This document shows positions 4,011-10,648 of a stretch of DNA of 37,792 nucleotides, piece after piece (the first letter of the stretch is position 1; each line of letters opens with the position of its first letter). The notes under the pieces were generated by a model. It was not told the DNA's origin. It saw only the letters and a list, made by a program, of their open reading frames with translations, and searched no databases. Source of the DNA: a virus (Duplodnaviria; Heunggongvirae; Uroviricota; Caudoviricetes). Location: the IMG/VR virus record IMGVR_UViG_2690316153_000015; one strand, written 5' to 3'. The position numbers and the translations under genes are program-made.

Positions 4011-4132
4011 GAAACCAGAACATGCACACACAAAAAAACCGCTTGCCATGCCGCAATCAGTCAGGTTACATTTCCGCTGCACCTCACAAAACGGGTGTCG
4101 GGTTTCGCAGCCTGCTGACTACACAAGCGCAC

Positions 4133-4153
4133 AACCGCGCCAGCGGTTTTTTT
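4133..4153 (+). terminator. Putative intrinsic terminator (AACCGC-GCCA-GCGGTT followed by T7)
   Basis: Short GC hairpin followed by a run of T directly visible in sequence. Confidence 0.4.
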
Positions 4154-4332
4154 GTGCGTACTGTATTGCCACGTTTTTTTCGCGTCAGAATTATGGCGGG
4201 GCGTACGGGGCCGACTTCGGTCGGGCCGGGTTCTTGTGTAGCCGGTACTGCGAACCTCGTACGTCTCGCCACCCACAGTTTCGCAGCTCTGGATGGTGAG
4301 TTTTCACAACTTACTACACAAGGGGCCACACC

Positions 4333-5007: not shown

Positions 5008-7830
5008 ATGACGGCAGAGTACATCAGGGACTGGCAACAACCGCGCCACGCAGTGGGGCGTGAAGGAACGGGGATCCCCGCTCCTGAATCCGCGCTTTCC
5101 TCCTGGCTGGATGCCTACCGGGCAGAGAACGAGCGCCGCCAGGAAATGGCTGATGCGGCGTTCTCCGCCACGCCGCTGGGCAACCTGATTAATAAAAGCC
5201 TGGACGCACAGGAAAAACAGGACAAAACCATCACACTGGCAGGAGACGCCAGAAAACAGGCACGTGGCGCGGTGGATGAAGCCATGGCCTCACTGCGCCT
5301 GCTGCCGTCCTATCTGCGCGATCCGCTTATTCGCCACCTCTCCTTCCTGCGCAAAAAACAGGAAGCCGATCGCCGGAAAGGCAAAAAGAGCTGGCAGGCT
5401 GAACGCTACGCGTGCGGAACCCTGCGCAAAATATTCGAACGTCTGGACCGCACCGACCACCGCTGGCTGACACCGGGTTATCGCTCCCTTGCCGGACGCG
5501 AACGCCTGGATGATTTGCTTTACCTGCCGCAGCTCAACAAACACCAGATACAGACGCTGGCCACCATGACGGCGGCGATGTTCAGCAGCACCTTCGAAAA
5601 ACTCTGCGATGGCTTTGGCGCGACTGATGGCGAGCTGACCATGGATGTAACGCTGAAGGCTTATCAGATGCTGGCCCGCATGGCGTTACACCTGCACGCC
5701 ATGCCTCCACATTATGACGCACTGACAACAGACAAAGACCGGAGGAACGAACCGGACACGGAGCTGCTGCCGGGCGCAATCCTTCGCCTGACCTGTGCGG
5801 AATGGTGGAAACGCAAACTGTGGCTGTTACGTTGTGAGTGGCGGGAAGAACAACTCCGCGCCGCCTGTCTGGTTTCCAGAAAAACATCCCCCTATCTGAG
5901 CCAGGACGCGTTAAGCGAGTTTCGCGCACAGCGCGAGAAAACGCGCGATTTCCTGAAAAGTTTCATGCTGGAAAATGAAGACGGGTTCACGATTGATCTC
6001 GAGACGGTGTATTACGCGGGAGTAAGTAACCCGGTTCACCGTAAGGCAGAAATGATGGCCACCATGAAGGGACTGGAACTTCTGGCCGAAGCCCGTGGCG
6101 ACAGAGCGGTGTTTCTGACCGTCACCTGCCCGTCAAAATACCACGCAACAACGGAGAACGGTCATCCGAACCCCAAATGGAACGGGGCCACCATGCGCGA
6201 CTCCAGCGATTACCTGGTTAACACGTTTTTTGCGGCGGTCCGCAAAAAACTGAACCGCGACGGCCTGCGCTGGTATGGCATCCGCACGGTGGAGCCTCAC
6301 CATGACGGCACTGTGCACTGGCATATGATGGTCTTTGCACATCCGGACGAGATTGAAACCATCGTGTCCCACGTCTGCGATATTGCCATTCAGGAGGACC
6401 GCCACGAGCTGGGCGATGACATAACTCCGCGTTTTAAGGCGGAGTATGTCGACGGCTCAAAAGGCACACCAACCAGCTACATCGCCACCTACATCGGAAA
6501 GAACCTGGACAGCCGCGCCGTGGATGGCATCGACCCGAAAACGGGCAAGCCACGCGTTGACCACGAAACAGGTAAATCAATGGCCGAGAGCGTGGAGCGC
6601 GCCATCGGCTGGGCGCGCCTTCACCGGGTCCGTCAGTTCCAGTTCTTTGGCATCCCCTCCCGTCAGGTGTGGCGTGAACTGCGCCGCCTTGCCAGCCAGA
6701 TGGCACGCAATCCGGAAGGCCCGCAACGGCTGAAAGATGATGCAATGGATGCGGTACTCGCTGCCGCCGATGCCGGGTGTTTTGCCACCTACATTGAAAA
6801 ACAGGGTGGCGTGCTTGTTCCACGCAAGGACTACCTGATTCGCACCGCCTACGACCTCGCAGATGAGCTGAACGATTACGGCGAACAGAGCGTACAGATT
6901 TACGGGATCTGGTCACCACTCATCGGGGAATCCTCCCGTGTGTGCACGCATCCGGATAACTGGAAGCTGGTAAGACGTAAACCAGAACCGGAAGACAACG
7001 CCCACGAAAATGGTTTTGACCTTCAGGGCGGCCCTGCCGCCCCTTGGACTCGTGGCAATAACTGTCCCCGTGTACAGGAAACAGGCAACAACGGGACAGA
7101 ACAGCCGGAAGAACGGCCAGCACCGTGGCCGCAGCTTCCTGACGGCGTTGAAGTAAATGAATGGATGCGCTCACTGAAACGGCACGAACGCCGGGCGCTG
7201 ATGCGTTCGCTTCGTGACAAACAGGCAAAAAACAGCAGCGATGAAATGCAGAACTGGACACAGAGCCGCAAACAGCAGCGGCCTTTGCCTGATAACCACG
7301 AGTTACTCGCTAAAGAATGGCGGGAGTCTGCTGAATCTCTCGGCCTGCATATCGGTGAACAACAGATGCAGCACCTGTTACGGGGCGGCAGTCTGTACGT
7401 TGACGGCAGCATCATTGCACCGCAGGGATTTGAAATTGTACGCAAACCGGATACCCGCCCGGACAGCCGAATCACGCAGCTCTGGCAGCGTCTGAGCCGT
7501 AATCATGGCGTAAGCAGCACGGAGATCCGCCATAACCCGGTCGCCAGCTATCTGGCACAGCTGGGGGCATCAGACCCTGAAGCCGCCGCACGCCTGGCAT
7601 CCACACTTCAGCAGGACCAGAACACCATGAAAACACCCGTTACCGTGCTTTCTGACATGCTGCGCGCCATCCGCGACGCAGAGCACGCACAGAGAATCAG
7701 TGAAACCACTGAACGCGCCAGCCGCAAAGCAGACCTGCTGCGGGGTGGCCTGACCAGTGGAAACAAAAAACAGACAGAAACGGGACTCACGAATCCCGTA
7801 AATGAGCAAAAAACGCGCAGCGATATATGA
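5008..7830 (+). CDS. A: Replication initiation endonuclease A (rolling-circle, HUH superfamily)
   Basis: 940-aa ORF; HUH-like motif TVHWHMMVF and paired tyrosines YIATYIGK typical of P2 gpA / phiX174 A-type initiators; position after the early operon. Confidence 0.9.
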   Translation: MTAEYIRDWQQPRHAVGREGTGIPAPESALSSWLDAYRAENERRQEMADAAFSATPLGNLINKSLDAQEKQDKTITLAGDARKQARGAVDEAMASLRLLPSYLRDPLIRHLSFLRKKQEADRRKGKKSWQAERYACGTLRKIFERLDRTDHRWLTPGYRSLAGRERLDDLLYLPQLNKHQIQTLATMTAAMFSSTFEKLCDGFGATDGELTMDVTLKAYQMLARMALHLHAMPPHYDALTTDKDRRNEPDTELLPGAILRLTCAEWWKRKLWLLRCEWREEQLRAACLVSRKTSPYLSQDALSEFRAQREKTRDFLKSFMLENEDGFTIDLETVYYAGVSNPVHRKAEMMATMKGLELLAEARGDRAVFLTVTCPSKYHATTENGHPNPKWNGATMRDSSDYLVNTFFAAVRKKLNRDGLRWYGIRTVEPHHDGTVHWHMMVFAHPDEIETIVSHVCDIAIQEDRHELGDDITPRFKAEYVDGSKGTPTSYIATYIGKNLDSRAVDGIDPKTGKPRVDHETGKSMAESVERAIGWARLHRVRQFQFFGIPSRQVWRELRRLASQMARNPEGPQRLKDDAMDAVLAAADAGCFATYIEKQGGVLVPRKDYLIRTAYDLADELNDYGEQSVQIYGIWSPLIGESSRVCTHPDNWKLVRRKPEPEDNAHENGFDLQGGPAAPWTRGNNCPRVQETGNNGTEQPEERPAPWPQLPDGVEVNEWMRSLKRHERRALMRSLRDKQAKNSSDEMQNWTQSRKQQRPLPDNHELLAKEWRESAESLGLHIGEQQMQHLLRGGSLYVDGSIIAPQGFEIVRKPDTRPDSRITQLWQRLSRNHGVSSTEIRHNPVASYLAQLGASDPEAAARLASTLQQDQNTMKTPVTVLSDMLRAIRDAEHAQRISETTERASRKADLLRGGLTSGNKKQTETGLTNPVNEQKTRSDI

Positions 7831-7877
7831 AGCGCGCACAAAACAGGCAAAAACGGGATTTCAGAATCCCGTAAACG
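7770..7877. repeat. Two 36-bp direct repeats, each containing the dyad ACGGGA-N8-TCCCGT, straddling the A stop codon upstream of parM (parC-like centromere/operator candidate)
   Basis: ACAGACAGAAACGGGACTCACGAATCCCGTAAATGA (7770-7805) versus ACAGGCAAAAACGGGATTTCAGAATCCCGTAAACGA (7842-7877). Confidence 0.55.
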
Positions 7878-7906
7878 ATTAATTAATCAACATAAGGAAA
7901 ACCGAC

Positions 7907-8866
7907 ATGAAAATTTACATCGACGACGGCTCCACCAACATCAAGCTGGCATGGACTGAGAACGGCGAACGCCGCAACGCCATCAGCCCGAACAGCTTCA
8001 AGTCGGAATGGTCTGCGCCGTTCGGTGGCTCGCAGCCTGCTAACTACATGCTTGATGGCGTGCGCTATGGTTTTGATCCGGTCAGCGATCGCTTTGTCCA
8101 GACGACCGACACGCAATACCAGTACAGCGATGTGAATGTCATTGCCATTCATCACGCGCTGGTCAAATCAGACATCACGCCACAGGAAGTGGATGTGGTT
8201 GTTACCCTGCCACTGAGCGAATATTTCGACACAAACGCACAGCCGGACCTGGCCAACATCAACCGCAAAAAAGCGAACGTCATGCGCCCGGTGGAGTACC
8301 AGAACGGCGAAGCATTCACTATCCGTAACGTACGGGTTATGCCTGAATCCATTCCAGCTGGCTTTAAAGCACTGGCTGACATGAGTCCGTTTGAATCCCT
8401 GCTGATTGTGGATTTAGGCGGAACCACGCTGGATGTGGCAAAGGTTCAAGGGCAACTGGCAGGTATCAGCCAGGTGTTTTGCGATCCACACGTAGGCGTT
8501 TCCCTGATGGCCGATGCCGTACTGTCGGTGATGGCCACTAACGGTATGCGCACCAGTCACCACATCGCCAATACCATTATCGAACATCGCAATGATGAAG
8601 CCTGGCTGCGCCAGCACATCCACAATGACGCGCATTACGCCAGCCTGATGGCGGTTATTCGTGAAAAGGAAGAAACACTGAAACAACGCGTGATCCGCGC
8701 GCTGGCGGTTTTTTCGGGTTACGGGCGGGTGATGGTTGTCGGTGGAGGGGCGGAGATTGTGGCACCCGCTATCCGCGAAGTCTGCGGAGTTAATGCGACT
8801 TTCATCGCGGACGGGGTGCCACAGTTTGCTCTGGTTAATGGGCTGTACGCAATGGACAAGGAGTAA
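7907..8866 (+). CDS. parM: Actin-like plasmid segregation ATPase ParM/StbA family
   Basis: N-terminus MKIYIDDGSTNIKLAW...ISPNSFK...YSDVNVIAIHHAL closely resembles plasmid R1 ParM as I recall it; phosphate-binding DLGGTT and VGGGA motifs; 319 aa. Confidence 0.85.
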   Translation: MKIYIDDGSTNIKLAWTENGERRNAISPNSFKSEWSAPFGGSQPANYMLDGVRYGFDPVSDRFVQTTDTQYQYSDVNVIAIHHALVKSDITPQEVDVVVTLPLSEYFDTNAQPDLANINRKKANVMRPVEYQNGEAFTIRNVRVMPESIPAGFKALADMSPFESLLIVDLGGTTLDVAKVQGQLAGISQVFCDPHVGVSLMADAVLSVMATNGMRTSHHIANTIIEHRNDEAWLRQHIHNDAHYASLMAVIREKEETLKQRVIRALAVFSGYGRVMVVGGGAEIVAPAIREVCGVNATFIADGVPQFALVNGLYAMDKE

Positions 8867-8869
8867 ACC

Positions 8870-9185
8870 AATGACGACACCAACCAGACGGATAAGTTTC
8901 TATCTGAAGCCCGCCGCCGTCAAGAGTGAACAGGAGGCGTGCAATTACCTCGATAGCCTGCCAGCCTCCGAACGCAGCCGCGCGCAACGCGCGGCCTTTC
9001 TGGCTGGGCTAGCGCTCATAAAGCGCAACCCAGCATTTGCCTACTGGATGGCCGAATGGCCAGAGGACAACCTCCCCTTCAATACCGTTAGCATCAAGGA
9101 AACATACCAGGATAATCAGCCTAGCGGAGTTGAATGCAATTTTTATAAAATAAAAAAGAATATTCAAACCTTATTCCCAGAATAA
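8870..9185 (+). CDS. parR: ParR-like centromere-binding adaptor (ribbon-helix-helix)
   Basis: Start ATG at 8870 with AAGGAG RBS; RRISFYLKP...LDSLPASERSRAQRAAFLAGLAL resembles R1 ParR (…LDSIPQGERSRLNRAALTAGLAL); the longer track ORF from 8736 would overlap parM. Confidence 0.7.
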
Positions 9186-9234
9186 TCTGATAATTGTATG
9201 TGAACTAATAAAATACAGACCAACACATCATTCT

Positions 9235-9257
9235 GGCACCCTTGCTAACAGGGTGCC
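9235..9257. terminator. Hairpin GGCACCC-N9-GGGTGCC between convergent parR and the cassette
   Basis: Perfect 7-bp inverted repeat in the 83-bp convergent intergenic gap. Confidence 0.35.
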
Positions 9258-9268
9258 AATGTTTCAAA

Positions 9269-10111
9269 TCATGATGAAATTGCCGAAGTTTTTTTATCGT
9301 GCTGAAGTACCGCAAATGCCATTAAAACCTCAAGAGAATAGCGGCGATAATACTTAACAAAACCATAATAAAATACTCGGGATGCAGCAATACAAAACAA
9401 GAGAAGAAAACAAAAAGGTAACAGCCTGATATTTATATCTATTAAAAAGGATAGAAGGAACAGGAACATAAGCAACCAGACTGAAGCGAGAAAAACAAAT
9501 GTAATGTTTCTACAAAAACCATACAAAGCAACATAGTTTTGCATTTTCACCTGATGATTTTTAGAATGTTCATACACATAATGATAAGCAAGGCGAAAAA
9601 GATCGCCCCTCAAGCCCTTACGTCGATATAGCGTAGATACAGAAAAAACATTTATATAACCATCTCGTATTTGCGGCCAAAAGACTTTAATAAGTATAGA
9701 ATGCAGTGTGGTTTTATGATGTTCTGCTTTATCAAAAGCTGATACAGGAAATAAAAAAACTCCACGGATAAAATTAACTATACTGAACTTAGTATTATGT
9801 CGTTTTATTTTCAGGGAGCTTCTTTTAGAAAACAGATAAATTGAAGGATACCCAAGTTTACTGTTCATGTATTTTTCAATTAAACAGGATGATAGAATAG
9901 ATATGAAGTGACCTGAAATATATGATAGAACGATTAATACCACATATATAAATACACTTATTATTTCTTTATATTTCAGGATATGGTTAAGAATACCTTC
10001 TATATAAACAGGGTTAATTTCAATAGAAAACAAAAAAAGGATAAACAGGAATAACCCACCTGGAATTAGATAGCCCAAAAAGTCATAAAATGAAAACGGA
10101 TTCTGTGTCAC
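9269..10111 (-). CDS. Multi-pass membrane protein, unknown function (cassette gene 2); GTG start
   Basis: 280-aa ORF; at least four long hydrophobic segments; very AT-rich codon usage unlike flanking phage genes; GGGGGA RBS before GTG. Confidence 0.65.
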   Translation of the reverse strand: MTQNPFSFYDFLGYLIPGGLFLFILFLFSIEINPVYIEGILNHILKYKEIISVFIYVVLIVLSYISGHFISILSSCLIEKYMNSKLGYPSIYLFSKRSSLKIKRHNTKFSIVNFIRGVFLFPVSAFDKAEHHKTTLHSILIKVFWPQIRDGYINVFSVSTLYRRKGLRGDLFRLAYHYVYEHSKNHQVKMQNYVALYGFCRNITFVFLASVWLLMFLFLLSFLIDINIRLLPFCFLLLFCIAASRVFYYGFVKYYRRYSLEVLMAFAVLQHDKKTSAISS

Positions 10112-10150
10112 ACTTCCCCCTGTGTTACTTGTAAATTAAAGGGTAAAACA

Positions 10151-10648
10151 TTATTTGTTTTTCCGTAAAGGATTAGCTTTCCATCTTCTTACTAACCATT
10201 CGAATTCTTGATATGTAGTATCCGAATTAATGCTTTCTCTGATTGCTTTAATTAATGGCTCGGCAATATCATATGTCTCTACAACTGTTGTGTAAGATGT
10301 TCTTTTTATCATTTTTTCATCATAAATACCTTCACGAATACTTACAGCAACTCGCTCGTAAAAATTTAAAATATATTGAAATTTTCGACGCTCGGCCATT
10401 TCTTCATCTGTTATTATGCAACCATCACAAGGAAAAACATAAGAACGAAATGATTTGCCTGAACGATGCACTTGTTTCAGGGTATGCAATGACTCTATAT
10501 ATTGCATATCTTGCCGACTCTCAAAAAGAAAGTTGGCCGTTTGAGTTTTTTTTGCGGTACGCACATTGTAGATAATGGTTCCAATGGCAACCAAAACGCC
10601 AAGCAGAACAATAGCATTGCTGATGATTTGTAGTGTTATTGGGTTCAT
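10151..10648 (-). CDS. Single-pass membrane-anchored protein, unknown function (cassette gene 1)
   Basis: 165-aa ORF; N-terminal TM segment ITLQIISNAIVLLGVLVAIGTIIY then ~135-aa soluble domain with CDGC motif; AT-rich; 39 bp upstream of gene 2. Confidence 0.65.
   Translation of the reverse strand: MNPITLQIISNAIVLLGVLVAIGTIIYNVRTAKKTQTANFLFESRQDMQYIESLHTLKQVHRSGKSFRSYVFPCDGCIITDEEMAERRKFQYILNFYERVAVSIREGIYDEKMIKRTSYTTVVETYDIAEPLIKAIRESINSDTTYQEFEWLVRRWKANPLRKNK

Follow-up and report, generated by a model that had tools for sequence, protein, structure and literature searches.

Why a phage that integrates into the bacterial chromosome should carry a plasmid-type segregation machine, and where on its DNA that machine might act, are questions raised by the early region of the 37,792-nt viral record IMGVR_UViG_2690316153_000015 (the whole stretch is referred to here as the window). 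The window is a P88-like prophage of Escherichia coli (Xuanwuvirus, Peduoviridae, P2-like), in which the replication gene A is followed by parM and parR, and a pair of palindromic direct repeats lies across the end of A and the gap before parM. This is a very common E. coli prophage; in the literature searched nothing specific was found on partition in Xuanwuvirus or Peduoviridae, and it appears that nobody has asked what role actin-like partition plays for an integrating P2-like phage. The repeats are probably the cis-acting parC of a type II ParMRC system of the prophage, that is, a centromere to which ParR would bind. A sequence-only reading of this DNA had proposed as much, and its proposal of ParR sites is well supported by the position of the repeats, their linkage to parMR, the conservation of two sites in distant relatives and the invariance of the predicted DNA-reading strand of ParR.

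A pair of palindromic repeats upstream of parM

The locus has the components expected of a partition system: an actin-like ParM, a small ParR encoded directly after it, and repeats in cis that adjoin parM on its upstream side. ParM of plasmid R1 (PDB ID: 1mwk) matches the window protein over its full length (residues 1-316, E 1.6e-92), and the closest solved ParR is that of pB171 (PDB ID: 2jd3; E 0.012, residues 6-57). The repeats occupy the place immediately upstream of parM in which parC lies in R1, pB171 and pSK41 (PMC2241845, PMC9426499).

According to the repeat finder the two repeats form one direct family of two 42-nt copies, identical at 34 of 42 positions (81%) and 73 nt apart from start to start; the sequence-only reading had recognised the same pair, with a size of 36 bp and a spacing of 72 bp that come close to these values. 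Each copy contains a 20-nt dyad, ACGGGA-N8-TCCCGT, which had been noted before and is found at 7780-7799 and 7853-7872. The distal repeat, rightly placed in the last codons of A, corresponds to codons 920-933; the stop codon of A (7828-7830) falls between the repeats, and the proximal repeat ends 28 nt, rather than the 30 bp given earlier, before the ATG of parM (7907). An extended form of the dyad, AACGGGA-N8-TCCCGTAAA, occurs at only two places in the 37.8 kb when up to three mismatches are allowed, with 0.19 expected. Apart from one 17-nt two-copy match, the pair is the sole direct-repeat family of 14 nt or more in the interval 7600-9400. A dispersed palindromic repeat of the REP or MITE kind (repetitive extragenic palindrome, miniature inverted-repeat transposable element) was considered and rejected, as only two copies are present in the window and, among the matches listed, the element always lies at the same prophage gene.

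Variation among P88-like relatives

Close relatives were collected as a P88-like set of 83 loci from IMG/VR, GTDB genomes and GenBank, which contain 51 distinct 310-nt sequences; 49 of these were analysed. Nucleotide diversity (pi) in this set is 0.026 in the arm cores and 0.027 in the 16-nt left flanks, which are as conserved as the arms. It rises to 0.057 at third codon positions of A, to 0.072 in the inter-repeat spacer and to 0.186 in the dyad centres, the only stretch more polymorphic than the spacer. The distal repeat is nearly invariant save for positions 7786 and 7791, and in the proximal dyad conserved arms enclose four highly polymorphic central bases (7861-7864). The substitution C7786T, present in 28 of the 49 sequences, turns the distal dyad into a perfect 8+4+8 palindrome, ACGGGATT-CACA-AATCCCGT. 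A coding-type pattern of variation was not found in the last 21 codons of A, which fall in the distal repeat and the spacer.

The locus L086 (957-1424) separates the repeats from A. Here A stops earlier, and a 155-aa, cysteine-rich open reading frame (ORF) precedes parM instead; homology to the window starts at about 7766, at the start of the distal repeat, and the 155-aa ORF runs into this repeat and so gains the 20-aa tail of A (KQT.TG.TNPVNEQKTRSDI). Because the homology begins at the repeat despite the different upstream gene, the repeats belong to the parMR cassette and not to A. In a second locus, L057 (1401-1470), an exact 73-bp deletion has left a single repeat with parMR intact, consistent with recombination between the two copies. 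The sequence-only reading had named the absence of the repeats from related phages with the same parMR as evidence that would speak against it; such relatives were examined, and the interpretation was not refuted.

The loss of one copy in L057 with no damage to parMR, together with the 19% divergence of the two copies in the window, would also suit a functionless remnant of a local duplication. We find this explanation hardly credible: of the 1305 E. coli records that match a 147-nt query covering the repeat region, at least 1299 (more than 99%) have both copies, polymorphism avoids the arms, and two copies with the same spacing recur across lineages that are only about 45-53% identical over the region.

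Two-site architecture in distant relatives

Plasmid ParMs are 39-52% identical to that of the window, and their upstream regions are classical parC regions, with 10-11 bp iterons in two blocks and a strong promoter between them. Searches of phage, plasmid and GTDB ParMs gave no ParM between 52% and 96% identity, and intermediates came only from a large protein database. All of the intermediates that could be placed belong to P2-like prophages whose gene order is A - parM - parR - portal; their ParMs are 62% (Hafnia, Plesiomonas) and 54-58% (Serratia, Enterobacter) identical to that of the window.

The DNA upstream of parM in Hafnia and Plesiomonas is only 46-53% identical to the window. Within it, as in the P88-like loci, there are exactly two elements of the form GGG-N10-CCC, spaced 73 bp (P88-like), 73 bp (Hafnia) and 72 bp (Plesiomonas) apart. 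Counted from the parM ATG, the cores lie at -125 and -52 in P88-like loci, -128 and -55 in Hafnia, and -131 and -59 in Plesiomonas. GGG-N10-CCC occurs two to six times per 10 kb, and the upstream pair is the only one with a spacing of 70-75 bp in each whole locus. The six sites share the consensus GGG-A-Y-N5-A-A-W-CCC-R-N-A-A-W-N-G, and identity between lineages is 57-67% in the site columns compared with 35-44% in the neighbouring columns.

The position of the sites relative to the upstream gene is not fixed: the upstream ORF stops after site 1 in Plesiomonas, between the sites in P88-like loci and inside site 2 in Hafnia. In the Hafnia locus L098 a 167-aa ORF separates A from parM, and the sites are still beside parM. 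The P88-like spacer has GC-rich blocks flanking an AT-rich centre at 7809-7838 (ACGCGCAGCGATATATGAAGCGCGCA, replaced in some relatives by CGCGCCATAAATACGAAGTGCGC), for which no counterpart was found in Hafnia or Plesiomonas. One further element, ATTAATCAA (7882-7890), is common to the P88-like, Hafnia and Plesiomonas loci amid diverged intergenic DNA; a weak -10 element and a translation-initiation element are possibilities.

These comparisons bear on whether the dyads act in RNA. On the minus strand of the window, both hairpins (8 pairs, 4 of them G-C, with a loop of 4; folding energy -10.2 kcal/mol each) are followed by T-rich tails, TTTTTGCCTGT and TTCTGTCTGT, and might serve as intrinsic terminators that insulate A from antisense transcripts of the cargo or late-portal genes; the minus-strand genes at 9269-10648 are without an obvious T-run terminator. 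Such a role seems improbable. The left-flank A-run, which is the minus-strand U-tract in the window, is absent in Hafnia and Plesiomonas, although position and spacing are kept, and only 3-4 base pairs can form in the Plesiomonas elements; a hairpin with a U-tract is thus not retained in either lineage. P88 itself has plus-strand genes after parR, and in the window the portal operon already has a strong minus-strand terminator behind it, at 10691-10667 (GAGGCGGGGA-TTTGC-TCCCCGCCTT, then TTTT), upstream of the cargo genes. The 16-nt left flank, moreover, is conserved like the arms, which no terminator needs.

A second role in RNA would be that of plus-strand hairpins in an A-parM message, which might process or stabilise the transcript or set the ratio of A to ParM. 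Co-transcription with A, suggested by the lack of a promoter or terminator between the genes (see below), would put both hairpins in the messenger RNA; their plus-strand folding energies are -9 and -11.4 kcal/mol (z -3.9 and -2.7), and two common polymorphisms, A7853G and C7870T, retain G-U pairing on this strand. In contrast, T7799C and the ACAGGA found in both dyads of L086 break plus-strand pairing and retain minus-strand wobble, and since the polymorphisms conflict between strands the transitions give no consistent strand signal. The conservation also reaches well past the stem, and Plesiomonas and Hafnia have lost the hairpin potential but keep GGG-N10-CCC, the spacing and the right-flank AA..G. 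We therefore attach little likelihood to a hairpin in the message. With position and spacing kept, and hairpin and T-run lost, the pattern fits a sequence-specific, spacing-sensitive protein site and does not fit a terminator or an RNA hairpin.

The sequence-only reading had also considered the repeats as a pair of terminators for A. This does not stand, as AAA and no T-run follows either stem on the plus strand, and the stop codon shifts relative to the sites between lineages.

ParR variation and the type of repeat

Within the P88-like group ParM is 96-99% identical while the adjacent ParR falls to 39% identity. ParR is hypervariable from residue 18 on (39-100% identity; L001, L008-L010, L017-L096); it exists in several allelic types, its linker varies greatly, and the DNA homology between the window and P88 itself ends about 55 nt into the gene. 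ParR may be under diversifying selection or subject to recombination, perhaps tied to the presence of co-resident prophage copies. Two parts of the protein are constant. The stretch RRISFYLKP (residues 6-14) does not vary among 29 cluster representatives whose overall identity is 39-95%, and it falls at the beginning of the alignment to pB171 ParR, at the expected site of the beta-strand of a ribbon-helix-helix fold; the C-terminal motif NI..(L/F)FP (NI..LFPE) is conserved as well. A search for ParR homologues found only P88-like ParRs.

The three lineages with GGG-N10-CCC sites share a TRR(I/V)SFYL strand. In the Serratia/Enterobacter clade, a sister clade that includes metagenomic contigs, the strand is (N/L)RK(I/V)SFYL, with RK in place of RR, and the repeats are different: 19-20-nt inverted arms, GGGAACGAAATAGAAAAAT (GGGAACGAAATAG), are 25-28 nt apart, and the GGGA core is common to these and the P88-type arms. 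One of the loci (L104) has in addition an 11-bp x 9.2 tandem array (ATGGGAACGAA), detected by Tandem Repeats Finder (TRF), and another (L108) has TCTATTT iterons. The gene order in this clade (L101-L104, L108) is the same, A - (cargo) - parM - parR - portal, and the repeats are always upstream of parM. Across the relatives the site is thus co-inherited with ParR, as in L086, and co-varies with it, the type of strand tracking the type of repeat. Judged from these alignments, the presence of repeats ahead of parM is a fixed feature of the family, and their sequence changes with the putative reading strand of ParR; this joint change is the strongest computational evidence for the repeats as candidate ParR sites.

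Binding by a protein other than ParR (the A replication protein, another early phage protein or a host factor), with a role in replication or regulation, would accord with the location of site 1 inside the A gene and with the variation of ParR helices 1-2, which is unmatched by changes in the sites. P2-type replication origins lie within A. Nevertheless, the sites remain beside parM where other genes part it from A (L086 and the 167-aa ORF of Hafnia L098), A itself varies in length and at its C-terminus among the three lineages, and the ParR beta-strand is the only protein feature that tracks site type across clades. A different binding protein is consequently an unlikely explanation in our estimate.

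Promoter and transcription of parMR

A consensus scan of the plus strand found no promoter in 7300-7907. Scores were also calculated with a custom position weight matrix (PWM) for sigma-70 promoters, by which the best candidate in the 200 nt upstream of parM reaches 1.7 bits, and the median best score across P88-like loci is 3.6 bits; with the same matrix, nine plasmid parC regions and one of a phage-plasmid score 9-15 bits. A promoter is accordingly not embedded in the repeats. In Hafnia a 9.6-bit candidate has a -35 centrally placed in the proximal dyad and a TATATT that overlaps ATTAATCAA, which occupies the corresponding -10 region in three lineages, and a weak, ancestral or lost promoter repressed by ParR is possible. 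For the phage of the window, where no sigma-70-like promoter was found in the 170-200 nt upstream of parM, the autoregulatory operator that the sequence-only reading had attached to the repeats is unsupported. An antisense RNA that would start in early parM and run into the terminator-like hairpin at 7872-7853 was also considered; the best candidates for its minus-strand promoter reach 5.9-6.7 bits, where the 99.9th percentile of the whole window is 5.9.

No plus-strand terminator was found between A and parM. With no promoter in the region and no plus-strand terminator after A, parMR is probably co-transcribed with A. A hairpin directly after parR (9234-9258; TGGCACCCT-TGCTAAC-AGGGTGCCA), between the converging parR and minus-strand cargo gene, likely ends the early/par transcript.

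Comparison with characterised centromeres

The lack of an embedded promoter is one of several observations that weigh against a centromere. Autocorrelation at a lag of 10-11 has a z of about 1.3, compared with 3.2-4.4 in six parC regions from plasmids, phage-plasmids and metagenome-assembled genomes, and TRF detected no tandem array in the repeat region. Two sites are few for a ParR scaffold, R1 using ten iterons, and all characterised ParRs bind direct repeats, according to a review-type statement (PMC9426499). Helices 1-2 of ParR diverge strongly between allelic types, and the repeats do not change to match; no correlation was found between allelic type and repeat variants, and one ParR can be found with either of the major variant sets (window and L082, for example). 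An AlphaFold 2 model of the ParR monomer has a low confidence (pLDDT 57), with helices in the expected order, and is too poor for a fold search. Lastly, the dyads scan as intrinsic-terminator-like on the minus strand of the window.

The R1 parC consists of two sets of five 11-bp direct iterons around a 39-bp promoter core, 159 bp in total (PMC2241845). The window resembles it in having a cis site directly upstream of parM, a homologous ParM, a ParR of the PF10784 family, and repeated candidate ParR sites in two blocks with an A-tract-rich stretch. It differs in having two 42-nt units, each with a 20-bp palindrome, in the absence of a 10-11 bp periodicity, a tandem array or an embedded promoter, and in the position of site 1 within coding sequence. 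The heptamer CAAAAAC, common to the window and the R1-like and IncI-K iteron regions, occurs once here, beside the proximal dyad (7848-7854), and a form longer by one A, CAAAAAAC, at 7764 and 7807. The density of A[AG]AAAC peaks here for the whole window, with four in 100 bp, and motifs of the AAAAC type may contribute at the repeat flanks. Phased AAAAC-type iterons of 10-11 bp (the C of AAAC at 7771, 7781, 7814, 7844 and 7854) were rejected, as neither autocorrelation nor TRF supported them.

A small number of sites has a precedent in pB171 par1, for which ParR binding to only two 10-bp repeats ahead of parM has been reported (PMC9426499). Those are short direct repeats next to a promoter, whereas the sites of the window are 73 bp apart and internally palindromic. 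For a palindromic type II centromere on a chromosome the precedent is the cParCMR of Clostridium botulinum, in which three palindromic repeats bind their ParR by electrophoretic mobility shift assay (EMSA) (PMC12270681). This organism is Gram-positive and distant in sequence, however, and cparC is drawn after cParR, not before parM.

The closest functional precedent is srpMRC of the SXT/R391 integrative and conjugative elements (ICEs), a type II partition system on an integrated element that is expressed only on activation and stabilises the excised circle (PMC4489591). Its centromere, srpC, has direct and inverted 13-bp repeats that are bound by SrpR in EMSA (PMC4489591). Like the prophage, the element is normally integrated in the chromosome, and its par genes have an activation-dependent promoter rather than a constitutive autoregulated one. 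The systems differ in that SrpR has no detectable homology to ParR and belongs to an ICE, while the P88-like system is that of a phage and has a bona fide PF10784 ParR.

A model for partition of the phage circle

If the repeats are the parC of the prophage, as we consider probable, ParR dimers of the ribbon-helix-helix type would read the arms of the dyads through the invariant N-terminal beta-strand. The sequence read would be the core GGG-N10-CCC with its right extension R-N-A-A-W-N-G, and each palindrome would probably take two ParR dimers, head to head. With 73 bp, or about seven helical turns, between them, the two sites would face the same side of the DNA and could be bridged into one compact ParR-DNA complex. 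Growing ends of ParM filaments might then be captured by the conserved ParR C-terminus (NI..LFPE), and filament growth would push two copies of the DNA apart. Expression of ParM and ParR would coincide with that of the early replication operon. Since nearly all genomes contain the prophage in its integrated form, and the operon seems to rely on the early promoter, the likely substrates are circular phage genomes that have been excised or are replicating, rather than the integrated prophage.

More speculatively, P2-like prophages of the Enterobacterales may carry a stripped-down ParMRC, with two palindromic sites seven turns apart, no promoter of its own and a partial overlap with the end of the upstream coding sequence. 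Made only with the early operon, it might spread or segregate phage circles or support a transient plasmid-like carrier state, and not stable plasmid inheritance; ParR could diversify outside its DNA-reading strand, possibly against cross-talk between co-resident prophages at the ParM-ParR step. We put this forward tentatively, as an idea more open to doubt than the assignment of the centromere itself.

A centromere of this kind would widen the range of parC architectures to one that is palindromic, widely spaced, without a promoter and overlapping coding sequence, and would help in the annotation of type II partition loci, in which the centromere usually goes unmarked. A minimal two-site centromere also offers a direct experimental handle on ParR binding, filament capture by two sites and the movement of phage circles. 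Should the sites not bind ParR, the cassette would be one without a recognisable centromere, which would be more surprising still.

Host phage and neighbouring genes

The coordinates of the repeats, the partition genes and the candidate centromeres of the Serratia/Enterobacter clade are collected in Table 1.

Table 1. Features of the parMR locus in the window, and candidate centromeres of one related clade (coordinates of the respective loci).
Feature	Coordinates	Strand	Description
Distal 42-nt repeat, site 1	7764..7805	+	In the last codons of gene A; repeat finder, CAAAAAACAGACAGAAACGGGACTCACGAATCCCGTAAATGA
Dyad 1	7780..7799		ACGGGAC-TCACG-AATCCCGT; conserved core GGG-N10-CCC at 7782-7797
Spacer between sites	7806..7836		31 nt, variable; holds the A stop codon TGA, 7828-7830
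Proximal 42-nt repeat, site 2	7837..7878	+	A-parM intergenic region; repeat finder, CACAAAACAGGCAAAAACGGGATTTCAGAATCCCGTAAACGA
Dyad 2	7853..7872		ACGGGATT-TCAG-AATCCCGT; conserved core GGG-N10-CCC at 7855-7870
parM leader	7882..7898	+	Conserved ATTAATCAA at 7882-7890; Shine-Dalgarno AAGGA at 7894-7898
parM	7907..8866	+	Actin-like segregation ATPase, 319 aa; StbA_N 3.6e-80, ParM_N 2.3e-68
parR	8871..9185	+	Ribbon-helix-helix-type adaptor, 104 aa, ATG at 8871; PF10784 Plasmid_stab_B 1.9e-28
Serratia/Enterobacter-clade repeats	L101 3882-3947; L102 2883-2950; L103 2888-2941; L104 172-326; L108 5-244		Candidate centromeres; clade includes metagenomic contigs

The prophage has its integrase at the left end, followed by a C-like repressor and Cox; cargo, portal and terminase genes come after parR. 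Cox (1538-1825) and the early genes through parR are on the plus strand, and the C-like repressor (1102-1440) is on the minus strand. Gene A (5008-7830) encodes a P2-type replication protein of 940 aa (Pfam Phage_GPA, 1.7e-129).

Fourteen phage records are 96-99% identical to the window over 7300-9300. The 147-nt repeat region is present in 1304 of 5426 complete E. coli genomes, about a quarter, with 1443 occurrences (1441 chromosomal and 2 on plasmids), and up to three prophage copies reside in one genome; among the matches listed, the region is always at the replication-endonuclease gene of a P88-like type of prophage. A comparison of the 42-nt repeat with plasmids returned only P88-like DNA, plus chance matches at E of about 7. 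One record, L097 (NZ_CP148288.1), is a complete P88-like genome with integrase, Cox, A, parM, parR and structural genes, deposited as a 34.5-kb circular, non-mobilizable E. coli 'plasmid'; either the assembly captured the phage while excised or replicating, or the circle hints at a plasmid-like state.

Two cargo genes on the minus strand (9269-10648) separate parR from the portal gene and encode a 280-aa membrane-like protein (phrog_12528) and a DUF4760 protein. The content of this slot differs in relatives, where HicAB, a KAP NTPase, a DUF3800 protein or SSB is found. Further upstream, Rfam models match the plus strand of the early region at 4079-4276, with isrK at 4079-4153 (61.9 bits) and the C4 antisense RNA at 4189-4276 (83.2 bits), so that an antisense-RNA immunity element in the style of P1 and P4 may sit inside a P2-type early operon.

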